DNA of 51,086 nt. It comes from Candidatus Adlerbacteria bacterium (GTDB lineage Bacteria > Patescibacteriota > Minisyncoccia > Phycocordibacterales > SBAW01). Where the stretch lies: contig PLCJ01000003.1 in NCBI GenBank assembly GCA_003135635.1, forward strand, positions 1-51,086, read 5' to 3'. The position numbers and the translations under genes are program-made. Shown here piece by piece: positions 5,125 to 50,808 of the stretch. The notes under the pieces were generated by a model. The model saw only the letters and a list, made by a program, of their open reading frames with translations. It searched no databases and was not told the DNA's origin. Every line of letters starts with the position of its first letter. Within the stretch, counting starts at the first letter, position 1.

Positions 5125-5901
5125 ATGGTTCTTTCCACAGACACGCTCACGCTGGTGTTTTACATCATGCAGCAGCTCGGCATGATGCTTGGATTTGGTG
5201 CCGAGGTCATTCTTCTTTTCACCTACCTCTTCGGCAAACGAAATGGTGTGATCAACGACACGGAGGACAGGATTGCCCACGGCATTTACCGCGTACTCCT
5301 CGTAGCGCTTTTCCTTATCGTCATCTCTGGGGTATGCATCACGGCGACGTATTTTGTCTCCGGTCAGACGAATATCGTATTTCAACCGGCATACCTTTTT
5401 AAATGGGCCCTTATTGCCATCGCGGTGGTGCTTGCAATTCTCCTTCGAGGTGCACGCATCTGGAATAGTTTTTTTGAAGGATTCGCTGGCGCGAATTGGG
5501 GAGCACTCTTCCTTATCCACATCTTCGCCCCCATTACCACAATCTTAATTCTCCTAGATTTCTACGGCATCTTGGTTTCTGGTTTCCTGTGCATTTGGTA
5601 CCTCTTGGTGTTCATCTTGCGCCCGAAGCTTGAGGTGGCTACTCCCGCACCAACTCCAGTGTCTCCGATCAAACCTCCTTTGCCTCCGCAGAAAATAATA
5701 ATGGACGTACCACGCCCTCCGATGGCACCCACGCCGCAAAAACCGCCCGTGCCAAGAGATTCATCACAACCCATCGTCATTCCCGCTATGCCCCAGCGTA
5801 TAATCCTCGATCCCGAAGCGCTGCCGGGACTCCCCACCATTCGGGTGATGCCCAAAACAGAGCAAGAATTAGAACAACAAACCCAGCCAAGCACTCCCTA
5901 A
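5125..5901 (+). CDS. Membrane protein with Pro-rich C-terminal tail, hypothetical
   Basis: About 5 hydrophobic helices followed by a PTPVSPIKPPLPP.. low-complexity tail. Confidence 0.75.
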   Translation: MVLSTDTLTLVFYIMQQLGMMLGFGAEVILLFTYLFGKRNGVINDTEDRIAHGIYRVLLVALFLIVISGVCITATYFVSGQTNIVFQPAYLFKWALIAIAVVLAILLRGARIWNSFFEGFAGANWGALFLIHIFAPITTILILLDFYGILVSGFLCIWYLLVFILRPKLEVATPAPTPVSPIKPPLPPQKIIMDVPRPPMAPTPQKPPVPRDSSQPIVIPAMPQRIILDPEALPGLPTIRVMPKTEQELEQQTQPSTP

Positions 5902-9099: not shown

Positions 9100-11958
9100 A
9101 TGGAAGGGTATGATCACCGGAAAATAGAAAAAAAATGGCAAGAAAAATGGGAGCACGAAAAAGCATTTCAAGCGAAGGACGATACCTCAAAAGAAAAAGA
9201 ATACGTATTAATTGAGTTCCCGTATCCCTCCGGCGATGGACTGCATGTGGGACATATACGCTCCTGGACTGCGCTTGATATCGTAGCCCGTAAAAGACGC
9301 CTTGAAGGAAAAAATGTTCTCTACCCCATAGGATGGGATGCGTTTGGCCTGCCGACGGAGAACTATGCCATTAAAACCGGAAAAGATCCCCGCGTCGTAA
9401 CTAAAGAAAATACAGATATTTTTCGCCGGCAAATAAAATCTCTCGGTCTTTCTTTTGATTGGTCGCGTGAGATCAATACCAGCGATCCCACATACTATAA
9501 ATGGACGCAGTGGATTTTTTTGCAGTTGTATAAGCATGGCCTGGCATACAAAGCAAAAACACTCATCAACTGGTGCCCGAAAGATAAGATCGGGCTTGCC
9601 AACGAAGAAGTGATCGACGGAGCCTGCGAGCGCTGTGGCACCTTAGTTCAAAAGCGGGAGAAAGAGCAGTGGATGCTTGCCATCACCAAATATGCCAAAC
9701 GGCTCTACGAGGATCTGGATAGCGTCAATTACATCGAGCAGGCAAAAATTCAGCAAAGAAATTGGATCGGCCCGAGCGAAGGAGCACAAATTGCCTTTCC
9801 TGTTTTGGGAAGCGATAAAAAAATAGAAGTGTTCACCACTCGCCCCGATACCCTCTATGGCGCCACGTATGTGGTCTTGGCTCCTGAGCATCCCCTCGTG
9901 CTGGAGCTTGCACCACTGACAAAAAATAAGGGGGCAATAGAGACGTATGTCAAAGCGACCCGACAAACTTCCGAAATTGAGCGCACGGCAGAAGCAAGAG
10001 AAAAAACTGGCATCCTCATGGAGGGGATATGTGCGATAAACCCCGGGACGAAAGAAGCAGTTGCTATTTTTGTTGCTGACTATGTGCTGGGGAGCTACGC
10101 TACCGGCGCCATTATGGGCGTACCCCATCACGATGAGCGTGATTTTGAGTTTGCCAAGAGCAAGGGGCTTCCCATAAAAGAAGTTATAGAAGCACTTGTG
10201 GTGCGCGAGCAGGGTGAAGACGCGGTAAAAAAAGATATGCCCTTCACTGAGCGCCGCGCAGTGGTTGCGGTTATCAAGCATCCTTCAAAGGATAAATATC
10301 TCGGCGTGCGCTGGAAGCGCACCGGCTGGCAGGGGTTTGTTATTGGAGGGATTGAGGAAGGGGAAGAAGCACAAGAAGCCGCAAAGCGGGAAGTCAGGGA
10401 AGAGACGGGATATAAAAATATACGCGCTGTGGGAATACTCGGCGGCCCCATACACGCACAGTTCTACCAGACACTCAAAGCCGAGAATCGGTTTGCACAT
10501 TTTCAATTGGTACTCGTGGAGCTGGGCGACGAAGAGAAAACCGAAATAGCACCAGAGGAAAAAGTGTTACATGAATTTCTTTGGCTCAGCCCAGAGAAAA
10601 TGACGGCGTTCATTACGCACCGGGATATGCAAATTCTTTGGGATAGGGTTATCGGAAAGATCTGCTACAGCGGCACGGGAATACTCGTCAATTCAGGACA
10701 ATTTAGCGGCCTGCAAAGCGAAGAAGCAAAGAAAAAAATTACTGAGTTTGTGGGAGGTGTGTGGCTCACCGTCTTTAAACTGCGCGACTGGGTATTCTCT
10801 CGCCAGCGGTATTGGGGCGAGCCCATCCCTATGATCTTGTGCAAAAAATGCGGCTGGGTTCCGGTTCCCGAGGATGAGCTTCCCGTAATCTTGCCTGAAG
10901 TTACTCACTATCAGCCGACCGATACCGGAGAATCACCGCTTGCAACTATTTCACATTGGATACACACCACCTGTCCATCGTGCGGTGGAGAGGCTACCCG
11001 CGAGAGCGATGTGATGCCCAATTGGGCGGGCTCCTCGTGGTACTACTTGCGCTATTGCGATCCCAAAAATACCAAAGAATTTGCTTCGCCGGAGCACTTG
11101 AAATACTGGACGCCCGTTGATTGGTACAACGGAGGCATGGAACACACGACCCTCCACCTTTTATACTCGAGGTTCTGGCATAAATTTCTCTATGACCTCG
11201 CACTGGTACCAACCAGCGAACCGTACGCCAAGCGCACCTCCCATGGGCTCATTCTTGCCAAAGGAGGAGAGAAGATGTCAAAGTCAAAAGGGAATGTCAT
11301 CAATCCAGACGGCCTTATTGAACGCTTCGGCGCGGATTCGCTTCGGTTGTATGAAATGTTTATCGGGCCATTTGATCAACCGGTTATATGGAGCGACACA
11401 AATATTATTGGAACGAGACGTTTTGTAGAGCGAGCTTGGAGATTGATTTCTACCTTCACACAGCACCAAAAAACGGTGATGTCCCCTGAGGCAGTGCGCA
11501 TGATGAGTCACTCAATAGCAAAGATTTCTTCAGATATTGAATCGCTGAAAATGAACACGGCTGTCAGCCAATTGATGATTCTTCTTAATCATCTTGAGAG
11601 CACCACTCCAACAATGCAGGCCCTAGAGACGTTCCTGCGGCTCCTTTCTCCCTTTGCCCCCCATGTAGCAGGGGAGCTTTGGGAGAAAATGGGTACTACC
11701 ACTGCGATGGAAAAAGCAGGTTGGCCTACCACCCCCAAAGAGAGCGCCACAGAGCTTGAGGTAGCTTTAGTGGCGCTCCAAATAAATGGAAAAGTACGCG
11801 CTACGATAGAGCTTCCACTGAAAGCCTCCGAAAGAGAAGCCCTAGAAAAAGCCCGTCTGCACCCCGCCATCTCCCCAAGGCTCGCCCGGGGCAAAGAGGT
11901 GCGCGCGGTATACGTCCCTGGACGAGTCATTAATTTTGTTGTCTCCGACGTGGCTTGA
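9100..11958 (+). CDS. leuS: Leucine--tRNA ligase with a NUDIX domain inserted in CP1
   Basis: PYPSGDGLHVGH (HIGH), GWDAFGLP, TTRPDT, LRDWVFSRQRYWG, GGMEHTTLHL and KMSKSKGN; the NUDIX box lies at 10345-10413. Confidence 0.97.
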   Translation: MEGYDHRKIEKKWQEKWEHEKAFQAKDDTSKEKEYVLIEFPYPSGDGLHVGHIRSWTALDIVARKRRLEGKNVLYPIGWDAFGLPTENYAIKTGKDPRVVTKENTDIFRRQIKSLGLSFDWSREINTSDPTYYKWTQWIFLQLYKHGLAYKAKTLINWCPKDKIGLANEEVIDGACERCGTLVQKREKEQWMLAITKYAKRLYEDLDSVNYIEQAKIQQRNWIGPSEGAQIAFPVLGSDKKIEVFTTRPDTLYGATYVVLAPEHPLVLELAPLTKNKGAIETYVKATRQTSEIERTAEAREKTGILMEGICAINPGTKEAVAIFVADYVLGSYATGAIMGVPHHDERDFEFAKSKGLPIKEVIEALVVREQGEDAVKKDMPFTERRAVVAVIKHPSKDKYLGVRWKRTGWQGFVIGGIEEGEEAQEAAKREVREETGYKNIRAVGILGGPIHAQFYQTLKAENRFAHFQLVLVELGDEEKTEIAPEEKVLHEFLWLSPEKMTAFITHRDMQILWDRVIGKICYSGTGILVNSGQFSGLQSEEAKKKITEFVGGVWLTVFKLRDWVFSRQRYWGEPIPMILCKKCGWVPVPEDELPVILPEVTHYQPTDTGESPLATISHWIHTTCPSCGGEATRESDVMPNWAGSSWYYLRYCDPKNTKEFASPEHLKYWTPVDWYNGGMEHTTLHLLYSRFWHKFLYDLALVPTSEPYAKRTSHGLILAKGGEKMSKSKGNVINPDGLIERFGADSLRLYEMFIGPFDQPVIWSDTNIIGTRRFVERAWRLISTFTQHQKTVMSPEAVRMMSHSIAKISSDIESLKMNTAVSQLMILLNHLESTTPTMQALETFLRLLSPFAPHVAGELWEKMGTTTAMEKAGWPTTPKESATELEVALVALQINGKVRATIELPLKASEREALEKARLHPAISPRLARGKEVRAVYVPGRVINFVVSDVA

Positions 11959-24562: not shown

Positions 24563-24610
24563 TATGTAGAAAGTGCTACCTAACTCCGCCATTTGTGGGA
24601 ATGAGTTATA

Positions 24611-24654
24611 TAAAACAGGAAACCGCCTCATCATGAGACTCGGCGGTCTCTTTT
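24611..24654. terminator. Bidirectional intrinsic terminator between alaS and the convergent orphan ORF
   Basis: accgcc (24622-27) / ggcggt (24642-47) stem with an inner ctca/tgag helix, followed by ctctttt on + and preceded by an A-rich run (U-rich on -). Confidence 0.7.
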
Positions 24655-24702
24655 GTGGCGGTTGTAGTGTCTCTTTTAACAACTTCGCGACTCGGCCTTC
24701 AT

Positions 24703-25173
24703 CTATGCTCTTACCGCTGCCTCTCCAGACAAAAAACAGCAGGGCCTCAGGTCGATGGACCATTCTGTGGCAGAAGCGGTTACTGGCGTCTCCTGTGAAG
24801 TAATGTGTCTTCCTGTGACCATCAATTCAATATGAACCACAGTGGGGCTGCTCCGTTTGAGGAAGTCTTGCAAGCCTTCTTTGAGCCACTGGTCTCCCTT
24901 GTGACCTCCTAGGATATCTACAAGATCCAGCTCTCTGCACCAGTTCTTTTCCTGGTAGCTACATGAATATAAAGCCGAAGCGTGTGGACCCCCTCGCATA
25001 GTAGTGACACACACTGTGATGCTGAGAGGAAAAGAAACTGCGTTTAGGTCTCCTTTCTTATGTTCGTATTTGGCGAGGGCTCGTGAAACAATGCGGCGCA
25101 GATTAGGGTTGCGCTTGCAGAGTTCTGGAAAATCGAGGATGTATTCCACTTGCTGCCTTTCTAGCAAAGCCAA
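24703..25173 (-). CDS. Orphan hypothetical protein (156 aa)
   Basis: Fills an otherwise empty interval. A minus-strand promoter ATGACT-17-TATAAT lies upstream (TATAAT at 25197-25202) and it ends near the 24611-24654 terminator. No recognisable motif. Confidence 0.55.
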   Translation of the reverse strand: MALLERQQVEYILDFPELCKRNPNLRRIVSRALAKYEHKKGDLNAVSFPLSITVCVTTMRGGPHASALYSCSYQEKNWCRELDLVDILGGHKGDQWLKEGLQDFLKRSSPTVVHIELMVTGRHITSQETPVTASATEWSIDLRPCCFLSGEAAVRA

Positions 25174-25256
25174 CGATACAGATAACCTCTGGCGAGATTA
25201 TATATCGGCCTTATTTGAAAGTCATCTATCTTTTTTGTTGCTGCTGAAATATCCAC

Positions 25257-25285
25257 TTGACAGTTTTTTTTGATATCCATATAGT
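25257..25285 (+). promoter_or_regulatory. Near-consensus sigma-70 promoter TTGACA-17-TATAGT
   Basis: TTGACA 25257-25262, 17-nt spacer, TATAGT 25280-25285. No long + strand ORF follows. Confidence 0.85.
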
Positions 25286-25291
25286 TATCTG

Positions 25292-25576
25292 TGGAAGAGA
25301 GGCAGTCTCGGGGCGAATTTTGGAGCTTAGGCTCCAGACAGAACGCAAAAGGAGGAGTTCTGTTCAAATGCGCTTTTTCACGGCTACCTGAGTTTCCGCC
25401 ACCCGTGTATAAGGAGAATTAGTGTACATGATTCGACTTACTCAGCCCCAAGGGGCTTCGAGAACCGGTTTGCGGGTGTTAGGTACGACTAAGAGCTAAC
25501 AAAGCTCATCCACCGTACCTAGCACGAAACGGTCCGATGTTGTTTGCTGCAAAGCATCCGCATCGGGCCGTTTTTT
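25292..25576 (+). ncRNA. Candidate structured RNA of unknown family (~285 nt)
   Basis: Bounded by the promoter above and a terminator with a U6 tail. Hairpins: tggagc/gctcca (25321-36), acagaac/gttctgt (25338-63), gtgttaggtacg/cgtacctagcac (25476-25525) enclosing gagct/agctc, and aaacggtccgatg/catcgggccgttt (25527-73). Confidence 0.6.
25527..25576 (+). terminator. Intrinsic terminator closing the candidate RNA
   Basis: 13-bp stem (one G-U pair) with an inner hairpin, running into tttttt (25571-76). Confidence 0.8.
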
Positions 25577-25590
25577 GATTGAGAACAAAG

Positions 25591-25638
25591 TAAAAAAGAA
25601 TTTGGGTCCGTCAAGAGTATTAATCTCAGACGGACCCA
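25591..25638 (-). terminator. Intrinsic terminator of the minus-strand orphan ORF
   Basis: Perfect 10-bp inverted repeat tgggtccgtc (25603-12) / gacggaccca (25629-38); the A-run at 25592-97 gives the U-tract on the minus strand. Confidence 0.8.
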
Positions 25639-25654
25639 GTGAGTGTCGAAACTT

Positions 25655-25906
25655 TCAGTGTCTCAGGTTATTGCAAATGCGTCTAACGTGCCCATGATCA
25701 TCAACTCTAAACTTCGCGAGAATACATGGGCGCCGCTCTTGTGATTTGTCTTTCTGCACTACAGTGCACACTCGAGCATCCCTGTCATACTCATGAGATC
25801 GTATGACGTGTTTTGGGGACGCGAGCAAAGGATGGTGTTCTTCAAGATATTCACGCACCGCCGCTATTGCTTCCTTTTCGGAAATCCTCCTCACCAATTC
25901 CTCCAT
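25655..25906 (-). CDS. Orphan hypothetical protein (83 aa)
   Basis: ATG start and a stop 16 nt before its own terminator. No recognisable motif. Confidence 0.55.
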   Translation of the reverse strand: MEELVRRISEKEAIAAVREYLEEHHPLLASPKHVIRSHEYDRDARVCTVVQKDKSQERRPCILAKFRVDDHGHVRRICNNLRH

Positions 25907-26102
25907 TCAGGATTAGTCTACTATTGGATATCAGAGTCACTACTCTTACTCCCTTATATTCTATTAATCCTTTCTCACCATTTAGTCAAATTACTCTCTC
26001 CACAGATAGATAGTTTTCCAAATGCTTAGATTTGCTTCCTGTAGACAGATTAACCCCCCAGTGCGCCCCTCAGTGGCTGTTTTGTTTTGCTATACTATAC
26101 AA

Positions 26103-27062
26103 ATGTCTTCTCTTTTCGGAAAGAAAAAGCTGGAAGAAAAAACAGTTGCTATCGTTGATATTGAAAATTCAAGCGTCGCAGCTGCACTCGTACAACTATC
26201 TCAAGAGGAACCAAAACTTTTCGCGGAAAAACGTACTTTTCTTTCCATTCCCCAGAGACTCCATGGGGAGAATCTTTTACACACCACGATTGCAGCCGCG
26301 CAGGAATTGCTTCTGCATGTGAGCGAAGTAGCGGCCCGCATGCGCATGCATAGGAAGCTGGCTCTCATGGGAGACGTACAGCAGGCGGTCGTATTTTTTG
26401 GACCACCTTGGGCTGAAATTGATACGACATCATCGGGCTCTGTCCAAGTGAATGCCCCGCGGGTACTCACTCAGGAGTTGCGCTCACAGATTGGAAGCGT
26501 ATTTGGCGATGTAGAAACTTCCTTCCACTCATTTGCAACTGCAGCAGCTCGCATTGCCCAAAGGAGTGTCCCTGATGAGCCATATCTTCTGTGCACCATA
26601 ACCGGGGAGATTACAGAGCTTACCCTCGCGCAAGAAGGGCGTATACTTGCTCGCGCCACACTTCCGGTGGGACTTTATACGCTGCTGCGCACGCTTACCA
26701 CTCACGGAGGGCTCTCACAAGCTGAGGCATACTCTGCACTGAAGCTGCAGTTTTCGTACTTAAAGGAACCCTTTGATTCAGTGGGTGAGCACTTTTCCAA
26801 TGCTTTGTATCATGGGCTGGAGGACATGGTTGCGTCGCTACCGACACGCAACGTATTTGTACTTGCTCATGAACCCAATGGTGAATGGTTTGCTCAGGCT
26901 ATTGTGTCGGATCCAAAAGTAGCCACCCTTTTTAAAGATGGAGGAGTAGTTCGCGCACTGCGCCCGGCACATCTCTCGCCATTACTTGCAGCACATGCTA
27001 CTCACCCAGATCTTTTTTTAATGCTTGAAGCGCTTTTTGTTGACGTACGGCATGGTGTATAA
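26103..27062 (+). CDS. PilM/FtsA-like actin-fold protein, divergent
   Basis: TVAIVDIENSSVAAALV resembles actin-fold phosphate-1; LCTITGEITEL..LPVGLYTL..LSQAEAYSAL resembles phosphate-2 and the following helix. TGcTATACT lies 6 nt upstream, fixing the start at 26103. Confidence 0.55.
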   Translation: MSSLFGKKKLEEKTVAIVDIENSSVAAALVQLSQEEPKLFAEKRTFLSIPQRLHGENLLHTTIAAAQELLLHVSEVAARMRMHRKLALMGDVQQAVVFFGPPWAEIDTTSSGSVQVNAPRVLTQELRSQIGSVFGDVETSFHSFATAAARIAQRSVPDEPYLLCTITGEITELTLAQEGRILARATLPVGLYTLLRTLTTHGGLSQAEAYSALKLQFSYLKEPFDSVGEHFSNALYHGLEDMVASLPTRNVFVLAHEPNGEWFAQAIVSDPKVATLFKDGGVVRALRPAHLSPLLAAHATHPDLFLMLEALFVDVRHGV

Positions 27063-37825: not shown

Positions 37826-37855
37826 TTGACAATATACTATATTGTGGTTTATAGT
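37826..37855 (+). promoter_or_regulatory. Sigma-70 promoter TTGACA-18-TATAGT
   Basis: TTGACA 37826-31, TATAGT 37850-55. Confidence 0.75.
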
Positions 37856-37911: not shown

Positions 37912-38226
37912 ATGGAGGAAAATAGGGTGTACGGTTTCATCTTTCTTAGTATCATAATGAGCCTGCTTGTTCTATGGCTGTTATGGGGCAGGTTCAGTCC
38001 ATGTCCCAACTGCAGCAGACGTCACCGACTGAAGAGTGTGTTAGTATTTCCGTCTCTTGCCGATGCCTTGAAGGCGCGTTTCGAGATCTATAATCGCACT
38101 CCTACAGGATATTTCGTTCGTACCCGTACTGCTACGGGTTGGAGGATGGCAATCGTAGAGACGCAATGTCCTAAGAATGGAGTGGGCTGGTATCCCATTT
38201 GGCACCCCTTTCTGAAAAGAGGTTAG
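37912..38226 (+). CDS. Orphan membrane-anchored protein with CxxC
   Basis: N-terminal TM helix, CPNC and a later C; has its own promoter and terminator. Confidence 0.65.
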   Translation: MEENRVYGFIFLSIIMSLLVLWLLWGRFSPCPNCSRRHRLKSVLVFPSLADALKARFEIYNRTPTGYFVRTRTATGWRMAIVETQCPKNGVGWYPIWHPFLKRG

Positions 38227-38238
38227 GGAAAAACTATC

Positions 38239-38264
38239 AGGCTACACATCATGTGTAGCCTTTT
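38239..38264 (+). terminator. Intrinsic terminator
   Basis: Perfect aggctacaca / tgtgtagcct inverted repeat followed by T-run. Confidence 0.85.
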
Positions 38265-38337
38265 CATTACATCGTCTACGATCTGCAGCAGGTATGAGGT
38301 AGGGTTAGGACTTAAATAGAATGGTAAACTTATACCA

Positions 38338-46699: not shown

Positions 46700-48128
46700 G
46701 CCAGTTGTTACTCGTTTTGCGCCAAGCCCCACCGGCTTTATGCACGTAGGGAGTGTTCGTACCGCGATTTTTGCGTGGCTATTCGCAAGAAAAAATCATG
46801 GCACTTTCATACTGCGTATCGAAGATACTGATAAGGAACGTCAGGTCTTGGGATCAATTGAGCATATTACCGATTCACTCCATTGGCTCGGCATAACTTG
46901 GGACGAAGGAATTGAGGTGGGTGGTTCTCACGGGCCGTATATACAGTCACAACGACTAGATTCTTACAAAAAATATGCGCAAACTCTGATCGACAAGGGG
47001 TATGCCTACCCTGACCCATACACGCAGGAAGAAGTTGAGCAGTGGCGCATGCAGGCTGAGGCACAGCAGCGGCCGTTTCTTTTCCGAGATCATCGACCCC
47101 ATGACACCCGAAAGTGGGATGGTATTCAGCCTCTGCGGTTCAAAATCCCCGAAATTAAACGCTATACATGGCACGATATGGTGCGTGGGAACCTTTCTGC
47201 AGGTGAAGAGGCACTTGATGATTTCGTGCTCATTAAAGGTGATGGATATCCTACGTATAATTTTGCGCATGTCATAGATGATCTAGAGATGAAAGTGACT
47301 CACATAATTCGCGGAGAAGAATTTATTTCTTCAACACCAAAGTTTCTCTCCTTATATGATGCGCTTAGTATTAAGCCTCCCATACTGGCAACGGTGCCTG
47401 TTGTGCTAGCTCCAGACGGCAAGAAAAAACTCAGTAAACGCGATGGGGCAAAAGATGTTCTTGAGTATCGCAAAGAGGGATATCTTCCAGAGGCAATCAT
47501 AAATTTTCTTTCTCTTCTTGGCTGGCATCCAGAAGGGGAACAGGAGGTGATGAGTATTGCGGAGCTTACTGATGCATTTGAACTTGAGCGTGTACAAAAA
47601 GGAGGCGCTATTTTCGACAATATTAAATTACGATGGATGAACCAACAACATCTCAAACGTATCTCTGATAAGGAGTTTATAAAGCAACTTACTGTGCTCA
47701 TGAATGAACGTGGTGAACAGGTACCCACGTATACGCAGCAGATACTTTCGCTCTTACGTGAGCGTTCAGCAACACTTGGTGAGGCGGCTAACATGCTTTC
47801 TTCTGGAGAATTTAATTTTTATGAAGCAGTATCTGTTGATGCTGCTCTCCTTATGCAGAACGTCCAAGCCGACCGAGAAACGGTGAAGCGCCATCTTGAA
47901 AAAGTACGGATATTAATTGAACCAACTTCTGGCGAAAACTTCAGTGCAGAAAGGATAAAAGAACTCATATTTCCATATGCAAATGAACAGGGTAGGGGAG
48001 CAGTACTATGGCCCTTACGTGTGGCACTTTCAGGAAAAGAAAAATCTCCAGATCCCTTTACCCTTGCAGAGTTATTGGGTAAAGATCAAACACTTCAACG
48101 CATTAAATCGGCACTCCAGGTGCTTTAA
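46689..48128 (+). CDS. gltX: Glutamate--tRNA ligase
   Basis: RFAPSPTGFMHVGS, LRIEDTD, PTYNFAHVIDD, RGEE, KLSKR. Start set at ATG 46689. Confidence 0.97.
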   Translation: MNPKPVVTRFAPSPTGFMHVGSVRTAIFAWLFARKNHGTFILRIEDTDKERQVLGSIEHITDSLHWLGITWDEGIEVGGSHGPYIQSQRLDSYKKYAQTLIDKGYAYPDPYTQEEVEQWRMQAEAQQRPFLFRDHRPHDTRKWDGIQPLRFKIPEIKRYTWHDMVRGNLSAGEEALDDFVLIKGDGYPTYNFAHVIDDLEMKVTHIIRGEEFISSTPKFLSLYDALSIKPPILATVPVVLAPDGKKKLSKRDGAKDVLEYRKEGYLPEAIINFLSLLGWHPEGEQEVMSIAELTDAFELERVQKGGAIFDNIKLRWMNQQHLKRISDKEFIKQLTVLMNERGEQVPTYTQQILSLLRERSATLGEAANMLSSGEFNFYEAVSVDAALLMQNVQADRETVKRHLEKVRILIEPTSGENFSAERIKELIFPYANEQGRGAVLWPLRVALSGKEKSPDPFTLAELLGKDQTLQRIKSALQVL

Positions 48129-48243
48129 ATCATCTTAACTTTATCAACAGGGTTCGCTTTTTTTCCTTTCTAGAAAGCTCATACTTAAGGGTGCGGGAGA
48201 AGGTCGAGCCGCAAATAAACTAACTTTTCAGTATCCTATATTC

Positions 48244-48480
48244 ATGAAAGCACTTCATGTCATTGCGTTCATACTTCTTATAATCGGTGGTCTCGATTGG
48301 GGATTGGTAGGCCTTGGTGCCTTCCTTGGCGGTGCAAATTGGAATGTAGTCAATTTGCTTCTGGGCAACTGGCCCCAAGTCGAATGGGCTGTCTATGTTC
48401 TTGTGGGCCTCTCCGCTCTCGTATTGCTGTTTTCACACAAGCGAGATTGTAAAACGTGCTCAGCAGGCGCAAGTCAGTAG
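48244..48480 (+). CDS. DUF378-like small membrane protein
   Basis: LLIIGGLDWGLVG..NVVNLLLG..VYVLVGLSAL pattern. Confidence 0.85.
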   Translation: MKALHVIAFILLIIGGLDWGLVGLGAFLGGANWNVVNLLLGNWPQVEWAVYVLVGLSALVLLFSHKRDCKTCSAGASQ

Positions 48481-48512
48481 TAGGGAAGTAGTCTTGTCTC
48501 GTTATTTAAGAT

Positions 48513-48545
48513 AACCCTCTTTTTCTAAAGGGGGTTCTCTTTTTT
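48513..48545 (+). terminator. Intrinsic terminator
   Basis: aaccctcttt / aaagggggtt stem followed by ctctttttt. Confidence 0.8.
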
Positions 48546-48851
48546 ATGAAATAAGTCACTTCCCTTTCTTTGAGTATTTTGATCTAGATTTATTTCTATA
48601 CTCAAAAAACAATTTCTCTGTTGAGAAAAAACGATTTATAAGGTAGCAAAGAAGGGGAGGGGTAAGGGATGTCTCCTTAGACAGTGATCCGGGAATACAC
48701 TGGTGCTGAAGTAGACTATACGTCGCACAATATACCTTTTGCGACCTATTATACAAGCCTTTTAATATCGGCTTCAAAATAACCTCAGGAAACTTTCTTT
48801 ACTCTTCTCCTGAGGTTCTAGATATATAATTTCAGTGCTAACATGTAAAAA

Positions 48852-49142
48852 ATGGCAAATCCCCTAAATGGTACTTCTTATATTGTAAGTTTTGAGCTGG
48901 GAACTGGAGCAAACAAAGAGGCCTTAATTGCTGCTTTAAAATCCTATGGGACATGGGGGCGGGTAACAAATGAGACGTGGGTAATCGTGGCCCTCTCTGA
49001 TAATGCAGCTTCTGTGAGGGATAAACTCACTCCTTTCATTGGCACTGGCGGAAGGATATTTATCGTAAAGTCTGGCTTCGAAGCTGCGTGGCAAAATGCG
49101 GCATGTGATAGTGAGTGGTTGAAAAAATATCTAGAGAACTAA
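48852..49142 (+). CDS. Small ferredoxin-like-fold protein, VapD/Cas2-like
   Basis: YIVSFEL..LIAALKSYGTW..ETWVIV..VRDKL..IFIVK..AAW..WLKKYL has a beta-alpha-beta-beta-alpha-beta pattern with an acidic residue ending beta1, as in VapD/Cas2. The fold call is inference. Confidence 0.55.
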   Translation: MANPLNGTSYIVSFELGTGANKEALIAALKSYGTWGRVTNETWVIVALSDNAASVRDKLTPFIGTGGRIFIVKSGFEAAWQNAACDSEWLKKYLEN

Positions 49143-49143
49143 A

Positions 49144-49575
49144 ATGGGAAATCAAAATCAGAGCGAAAACCCTATACAAATAGAACGAGCAAGAATTGGT
49201 TCTATATCCGTTTACGACGTTACTGAAGATGAGTTAGAAATAATAGAACAAGGCCCCATAGGATCAGTTTATTTGAATATATGTGTGGCTTCCTTTTCAA
49301 TAGGTTTAACTTTCATACTTACACTTACGACGGCGACATTTTCAGACCTGAGATGGTTCACGGTTTGCGTTGTTATAGCGGTGTTAACCATAATGAGCGG
49401 AATAATTACTTTAATTATATGGCTACAAAATAGAAAAAACTACGGGAAAGTTTTTAAAAGAATAAAGGGTCGTAAAAATACGGCACTCAAAAAAGATATT
49501 GAGCCAAATGCCATATTAGAAGCCTATACACTTTTAGATTCGAGCAATAATAGGAAAGAAGCGAAGAGAGGATAA
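49144..49575 (+). CDS. Two-TM membrane protein, hypothetical
   Basis: Acidic N-terminal domain, two adjacent hydrophobic helices and a basic C-terminal tail; starts 1 nt after the upstream stop. Confidence 0.75.
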   Translation: MGNQNQSENPIQIERARIGSISVYDVTEDELEIIEQGPIGSVYLNICVASFSIGLTFILTLTTATFSDLRWFTVCVVIAVLTIMSGIITLIIWLQNRKNYGKVFKRIKGRKNTALKKDIEPNAILEAYTLLDSSNNRKEAKRG

Positions 49576-50737: not shown

Positions 50738-50808
50738 TCGGGCCGCCGGGAATCGAACCCGGTCTACATCCACCCCATGGACGCGTACTGCCGGTATACT
50801 ACGGCCCG
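50738..50808 (-). tRNA. tRNA-Pro(GGG)
   Basis: Minus-strand cloverleaf: acceptor CGGGCCG/CGGCCCG, discriminator A, anticodon stem CGTCC/GGATG with loop ATGGGGT, T-arm CCGGG-TTCGATT-CCCGG. CCA is not encoded. Confidence 0.92.

Follow-up and report, generated by a model that had tools for sequence, protein, structure and literature searches.

The window analysed here, a 51,086-nt stretch of a Candidatus Adlerbacteria contig, contains a small plus-strand transcription unit that lies between a shortened alanyl-tRNA synthetase gene (alaS) and a conserved gene downstream of it (Table 1). Pfam detects only tRNA-synt_2c in this alaS, a tblastn comparison with a 635-aa relative aligns residues 1–480, and homology to the relatives ends at residue 480, leaving six bases to the stop codon. 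The last 155 AlaRS residues, with the tRNA_SAD domain, left no trace that tblastn could find anywhere in the 51-kb window; AlaRS is 585–653 aa long in 25 of 25 CPR relatives measured, and all 25 of the CPR relatives checked keep tRNA_SAD. The block that separates the truncated alaS from the downstream gene is lineage-specific, since in relatives alaS adjoins the homologue of 26103–27062 directly or after one small variable gene. The closest available relatives are 43–47% identical in the downstream gene and have an alaS that carries tRNA_SAD, and in relatives the homologue of 26103–27062 is followed by a 428-aa gene, infA, rpsM, rpsK, rpsD and rpoA. By these comparisons the insertion replaced the 3' end of alaS and removed the editing domain. 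This loss raises the question of how Ser/Gly mischarging of tRNA-Ala is avoided, and the truncation of alaS by the insertion is more notable and more consequential than the small unit itself.

The junction between alaS and the downstream gene varies among the relatives. It is empty in L084 (2420–2443), holds a 134-aa ORF with a hydrophobic N-terminus in L082 (1052–1486) and L083 (173–577), and holds a DUF5680 protein in L085 (802–1347) and L086, which suggests that it is a hot spot for small accessory genes. The downstream ORF of our window, 26022–27062 (346 aa), probably starts at ATG 26103 (319 aa), its homologues being 303–327 aa long; a TATACT box lies 6 nt upstream of this ATG.

The insertion holds three units, a 156-codon ORF on the minus strand, the unit studied here on the plus strand and an 83-codon ORF on the minus strand, none of which has a homologue in any of our searches. 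The GC content of block 25001–26000 is 0.45, as compared to about 0.48–0.49 in the flanking blocks. The coding status of the 156-codon ORF is doubtful: its only match among 1.84 billion representatives is itself, its AF2 pLDDT is 45 and its codon score is -0.058. We considered it as a free-standing AlaX and rejected this, as it gives no tRNA_SAD signal. The 83-codon ORF reaches a single-sequence AF2 pLDDT of 79.7, in a predicted fold of a helix and four strands with PepSY-like topology that most closely matches the YpeB C-terminal (PepSY) domain (prob 0.93, E 0.23); no sequence match to it was found, and it was not called by the gene caller on the Logan contig. Searches of the viral collection, Pfam, PHROGs, PADLOC and NCBIfam gave no match to either ORF, and blastn of the insertion against phages and plasmids gave nothing. 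A mobile-element or repeat reading of the block was likewise discarded, there being no notable terminal repeats and no second copy in the window. The position of the unit inside an alaS-truncating insertion was overlooked in the first-pass annotation.

Table 1. Features of the alaS insertion, of the small transcription unit within it and of the twin-promoter locus (positions in the 51,086-nt window).
Feature	Position	Strand	Description
alaS, 484 aa	23108–24562	+	tRNA-synt_2c catalytic/tRNA-binding region kept; tRNA_SAD editing domain missing
Lineage-specific insertion/replacement, ~1.5 kb	24563–26102		between truncated alaS and conserved downstream gene (ATG 26103)
Orphan 156-codon ORF	24703–25173	-	divergent 10/12 promoter ATGACT-17-TATAAT at 25225–25197
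Sigma-70-type promoter	25257–25285	+	-35 TTGACA 25257–25262, 17-nt spacer, -10 TATAGT 25280–25285
Predicted transcript, ~285 nt	25291–25576	+	predicted start G25291 to G25293; 3' end in U-run 25571–25576
ORF1, 43 codons	25291–25422	+	MEERQSRGEFWSLGSRQNAKGGVLFKCAFSRLPEFPPPVYKEN; GTG is sixth base after -10 box; candidate leaderless start
H1 and H2 hairpins	25321–25364	+	H1 UGGAGC-UUAG-GCUCCA 25321–25336; H2 25337–25364
Middle three-way junction, H3 and H4	25396–25475	+	H3 pairs AAGGAG 25411–25416 and part of ORF2 GUG/AUG start region
ORF2, 25 codons	25422–25499	+	MYMIRLTQPQGASRTGLRVLGTTKS; GUG overlaps ORF1 UAG by one base (UAGUG)
H5	25476–25525	+	12-bp stem (one G.U) around GAGCU-AACAA-AGCUC hairpin; no U-tract after it
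Intrinsic terminator	25527–25576	+	13-bp stem (one G.U), inner GCAA-capped stem, U6
Orphan 83-codon ORF	25655–25906	-	convergent with the unit; own terminator 25603–25638 and U-run, z -6.27
104-codon membrane ORF	37912–38226	+	twin promoter TTGACA-18-TATAGT at 37826; terminator ~38240–38265

The unit had been described as a stand-alone RNA gene with one of the best promoters in the window, a terminator made of a 13-bp stem and U6, no long ORF and no gene downstream to regulate, and each of these points agrees with our own measurements. In a scan of both strands (102 kb) the promoter scores 11/12, joint best in the window; the only other site with this score lies at 37826–37855, and all remaining sites reach at most 10/12. 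The terminator, whose arms (25527–25539 and 25561–25573) form 13 pairs including the G.U pair, encloses the cap UGCU-GCAA-AGCA and runs into U6 at 25571–25576; a simple built-in scan missed it because of the inner loop. Promoter and terminator hairpin are ~240–290 nt apart on the same strand, and the transcription start is a predicted one. ORFs that overlap the unit have at most 44 codons, and a same-strand candidate for regulation is absent, the next plus-strand gene being 526 nt away. The unit has, then, its own promoter and a Rho-independent terminator outside coding sequence, the features by which an sRNA gene is recognized. On present evidence it is a self-contained orphan small transcription unit and not a large structured RNA, a genuine-looking orphan small gene of an ordinary kind.

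We compared the unit with 80 CPR alaS loci and with 5 loci that carry homologues of the downstream gene. Neither nhmmer nor blastn (word size 7) found a homologue in these 85 CPR loci, and a single-sequence covariance model run over 1.0 Mb of sequence found no true one; its sole match (locus L008, 23 bits) lies inside the S4 gene (rpsD) and is a false positive. Two purine/pyrimidine-degenerate pattern scans of metagenome contigs and four degenerate-pattern scans of viral contigs returned nothing for the unit, and neither did a six-frame translation of the RNA region against 5.8 billion proteins, a query meant to catch spurious ORFs called over homologous RNA genes. The only other copy of the unit is in an identical Logan contig, and run SRR7151668 contains the genome.

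The folding calculations locate what structure there is. The predicted transcript (285 nt, plus strand) has a minimum free energy (MFE) of -114.1 kcal/mol (z -5.57) and its reverse strand one of -93.6 kcal/mol (z -3.16), and in a sliding 285-nt fold scan of the window, regressed on GC, the locus occupies all of the top 6 of 2260 places and is the strongest-folding stretch for its GC content. The whole-transcript z of -5.6 is due to the two 3' hairpins, H5 (segment 25474–25527, z -6.56, with none of 200 shuffles folding as well) and the terminator (segment 25525–25577, z -6.07). The 105-nt 5' domain, which encloses H1 and H2 (the loop of H2 contains AAAGGAGGAG), has a z of -1.05 with 28 of 200 shuffles folding as well, and its fold is therefore not above chance. 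The middle junction (25395–25476) is borderline on the plus strand (z -2.74; 2 of 200 shuffles) and has a z of -0.31 on the minus strand. For the 185-nt body as a whole (25292–25476) z is -1.12, a value equalled or bettered by 25 of 200 shuffles. A plus-strand orientation is consistent with these structures, since H5 and the terminator each contain a G.U pair that the opposite strand would turn into A.C. The idea of a globally structured large RNA fails because the folding energy of the body is indistinguishable from that of its shuffles; in a structured RNA family the energy should lie clearly below shuffles throughout the molecule, and only H5 and the terminator are exceptional here. Thus all of the "at least five hairpins" first reported are in the MFE structure, only H5 and the terminator among them exceed chance, and the description of the unit as a highly structured RNA was overstated.

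Elsewhere in the window, the twin promoter at 37826 was considered as the start of a second RNA gene and set aside, as it drives the 104-codon membrane ORF, which has a 56-nt leader that lacks a Shine-Dalgarno (SD) motif, looks unannotated and belongs to no Pfam family. The second-best folding locus, 48286–48850, was rejected as a sister RNA, being a DUF378 small-protein gene and its terminator. The 1-kb "gap" at 48128–49144 holds this 78-aa gene (48244–48480; Pfam E 2.7e-11) with its terminator as well as a 96-aa orphan ORF (48852–49142). A stretch at 11476–11900 on the minus strand, antisense to ORF 9100–11958, has an unusually stable predicted fold given its GC, with a residual z of -3.3 to -3.7 in the sliding scan.

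Two small ORFs cover 209 of the 236 nt ahead of the terminator. Upstream of ORF1 the -10 box TATAGT is followed by TATCT and then by GTG 25291, which, counted from the preceding in-frame stop, is the earliest possible start; the ORF ends in UAG at 25420–25422. This GTG and its leaderless arrangement were overlooked in the first-pass annotation, which had noted AAGGAG in front of a GTG/ATG of a short ORF. That motif is present, with AAGGAG (25411–25416) 5 nt before GTG 25422 and with ATG at 25428, and the ORF that it precedes, ORF2, has 25 codons and a stop, UAA, in the inner loop of H5. From this stop to the terminator stem is 27 nt, similar to the stop-to-hairpin distances of roughly 15–30 nt at the small genes 38226, 48480 and 25655. 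Among 20,000 dinucleotide shuffles, 1.9% opened an ORF of 40 codons or more in their first 3 nt and 1.3% had an ORF chain reaching at least nt 205 (p about 0.013); both statistics are post hoc, having been computed after the ORFs were seen. Scored by codon usage, ORF1 (-0.118 per codon) and ORF2 (-0.163 per codon) rank with spurious frames, native genes scoring +0.156 +/- 0.109, but this test is a weak one because the 83-codon and 104-codon ORFs score alike (about -0.11 to -0.13 per codon). Neither peptide has a homologue or a family match, and both are hydrophilic and look disordered. ORF2 was tried as a ribosomal protein L34-like sequence (M.R..QP) and dropped, as it had no HMM support at E<=10.

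None of about 45 genes in the window has an SD motif, in keeping with the earlier remark that such motifs are rare here. Where more than 100 nt separate a gene from the one before it, a -10-like box mostly lies 5–8 nt ahead of its ATG (genes at 5125, 7027, 13296, 26103, 48244, 48852 and 49689), which suggests that translation of operon-first genes is mostly leaderless in this Paceibacteria-like genome. GTG 25291 lies 5 nt after TATAGT, inside this range of spacings, at a predicted start site; the clear leaderless genes of the window all start with ATG and none with GTG, and a start at G25293, which is predicted about equally well, would leave the transcript without this codon. In mycobacteria an ATG or GTG at the very 5' end of a transcript is both required and enough for leaderless translation, and small proteins are encoded at many 5' ends classed as "non-coding" (PMC4633059). 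The micropeptide first proposed for the unit gains weight from this arrangement, though in another form, as a putative leaderless 43-codon ORF that would be coupled through UAGUG to the 25-codon ORF.

Whether the unit belongs to a known RNA family was examined with Rfam 15 (4227 models) in E-value mode; the queries were stretches of 295, 651 and 1601 nt that include the unit, and the complete window. No family matches the unit at or near its gathering threshold; only chance-level miRNA and snoRNA matches of at most 20.7 bits, against gathering thresholds of 70–100, were returned. We relied on E-value mode because the gathering-mode scan of the whole window missed our positive control, the window's tRNA-Pro (GGG; 50738–50808, minus strand), which scores 48.3 bits in E-value mode; gathering-mode negatives are thus not to be trusted alone. 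ARAGORN found no tmRNA and no Rfam tmRNA model matched at E<=10, and the family can still be called unrecognized. Since the Rfam E-value search and ARAGORN were both negative, c-di-GMP-I, RNase P, tmRNA, SRP and 6S readings are all unsupported.

Least probable among the alternatives is a divergent housekeeping RNA (RNase P RNA, tmRNA, 6S or SRP RNA) that the covariance models missed. CPR RNAs can be reduced, and by eye GAGAGGCAGUCUCGGGGC bears a loose likeness to CR-I of RNase P and GAGAACCGGUUU to CR-V; paired by hand, however, the two strings make at most 4 P4 pairs, and there is no room for P1–P3 because the CR-I-like string lies ~6 nt from the transcript start. Inspection and Rfam found in the unit no CR-I and CR-V that form P4 with P1–P3 before them, no RNase P, tmRNA, 6S or SRP model matched it even at E<=10 in the same mode that found the tRNA at 48 bits, and the gene is absent from the relatives, lying inside a lineage-specific insertion. 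It is also very unlikely that the unit is a riboswitch or cis-regulatory leader of a GEMM-like kind, or a type I toxin mRNA whose ribosome-binding site would be sequestered. Pairing of AAGGAG and of the ORF2 start region in H3 would suit either, and a three-way junction is one way to draw the 5' domain, but no Rfam riboswitch or leader, RF01051 (c-di-GMP-I) included, matched the 295 nt at E<=10, the 5' domain folds at z -1.05, and the next plus-strand gene stands behind a convergent gene with its own terminator. The GEMM-like echo that had been seen in the 5' arm thus finds no match, and a riboswitch controlling a micropeptide draws no support from any known aptamer. Type I toxins of the hok/mok type are membrane-active peptides. 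The type I toxin-antitoxin-like mRNA also put forward earlier is unlikely here, as the peptides are hydrophilic and lack a hydrophobic stretch, and as no overlapping minus-strand promoter of at least 10/12 lies inside 25291–25576.

A possibility that we take seriously, if tentatively, is an ordinary orphan non-coding sRNA, whose weakly structured body of ~185 nt would work in trans, through base pairing or by binding a protein, with H5 and the terminator blocking 3' exonucleases and with the ORFs there by chance. A promoter and an intrinsic terminator of its own in a gene-free stretch are the classical signature of an sRNA gene, and the unit is the top-folding locus of the window; the far better fold of the plus strand (-114.1 versus -93.6 kcal/mol), the G.U pairs of H5 and the terminator, which are valid on that strand only, and the middle domain, whose z of -2.74 is confined to it as well, point the same way, as do the non-native codon usage of the ORFs and their featureless peptides. 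Against this, the body fold is not above chance, no homologues were found and hence no covariation, and chance would produce such a tiling of ORFs, which begins at the predicted start and stops 27 nt short of the terminator, in 1–2% of cases. A target search within these 51 kb of genome found nothing above shuffles: 22 of 60 shuffles did as well as the best duplex with 51 translation-start regions, and z values for the neighbouring mRNAs ran from -1.9 to +0.7. As an sRNA the unit would join a very short list of candidates in Paceibacteria, with no route to a family or mechanism because it is a singleton. We regard it as improbable that the unit is inert debris of the insertion event, that is, promoter-like and terminator-like sites in foreign or decayed DNA with no selected product. 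The 1.5-kb block is indeed an orphan of non-native composition and codon usage that lacks a homologue in any collection searched, and the event destroyed part of an essential gene. Yet both strands together (102 kb) contain just two promoters that score 11/12, and this one has a z -6 terminator as its partner, in the right order and on the right strand. A convergent, confidently folding ORF has its own minus-strand terminator back-to-back with that one; the block looks like organized, maintained transcription units, and an identical sequence, with zero differences, is present in another assembly. A further reading, which we consider quite unlikely, would make the unit the founding member of a lineage-restricted RNA, possibly dual-function with two micropeptides, that arrived with the cassette that deleted the editing domain and whose middle junction and H5 would form a protein- or ribosome-binding module; the middle-domain z of -2.7 is all that speaks for it.

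The reading that we favour, at a rough probability of 0.4 and followed closely by the orphan sRNA, is that the unit is a tiny leaderless mRNA. The promoter, the terminator, the layout of the ORFs, the leaderless-like style of genes in this genome, the lack of a match to any known RNA family and the position in the insertion are observations; the start site, the translation of either ORF, their coupling and any function of the peptides are inferred. Transcription from the strong promoter would start at or beside G25291, and the 5'-terminal GUG would be used directly by ribosomes to give a 43-residue peptide, in the way that operon-first genes of this SD-less genome generally seem to be read. 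A ribosome terminating at UAG 25420–25422 would unwind hairpin H3 and then start anew at the overlapping GUG (UAGUG), producing a 25-residue peptide, while termination and a stable 3' end would be provided by H5 and the terminator hairpin.

Both the micro-mRNA and the sRNA accept a real, independent transcription unit, and besides its promoter and terminator three features alone give a statistical signal. The ORF tiling favours an mRNA, and the 3' hairpins are neutral. The strand-specific middle domain fits either, and it pairs the ORF2 start region, as is expected for coupling. Nothing argues for an RNA that depends on its fold, since the 185-nt body is no more structured than chance (z -1.12). 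Against an mRNA, the gene caller behind the Logan contig called no gene at the unit, and the last 8 codons of ORF2 lie inside the 12-bp stem. If the micro-mRNA reading is true, a promoter and terminator that enclose no long ORF do not amount to a non-coding RNA in SD-less, leaderless CPR genomes, and small-protein genes would be systematically overlooked in such genomes.

Set beside known systems, the unit resembles the c-di-GMP-I aptamer (GEMM-I, RF01051) in no more than the loose string GGGCGAA ... GAACGCAAAA. It differs in its H1 loop, which is UUAG, and in having no GNRA loop or receptor, no covariance-model match at E<=10 and a 5' domain fold that is not above chance; no same-strand gene follows it before 26103, and a convergent gene lies between. 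With type I toxin mRNAs of the hok/mok type it shares a short length, a stable 3' end and a small-ORF start region that lies paired within a hairpin and overlaps the ORF before it, but its peptides are hydrophilic, no overlapping antisense promoter was found and there is no homology. Classical intergenic sRNA genes (sigma-70 promoter, Rho-independent terminator, 50–300 nt) are matched by the unit in promoter, length and gene-free site, and in a U6 terminator that is preceded by another stable hairpin; it departs from them in lacking above-chance targets, found homologues and a known chaperone context, and in that ORFs tile the transcript. Finally, like the leaderless small-ORF transcripts of mycobacteria (PMC4633059), the unit is short, has an RTG at its predicted +1 and an unannotated small ORF with no SD requirement, and belongs to a genome whose operon-first genes look leaderless. 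Unlike in the mycobacterial transcripts, its start site is predicted, its peptide shows no conservation and its start codon is GTG while the clear leaderless genes of the window use ATG; it also adds a coupled 25-codon ORF with an SD-like motif, in a genome that otherwise makes no use of SD sequences.
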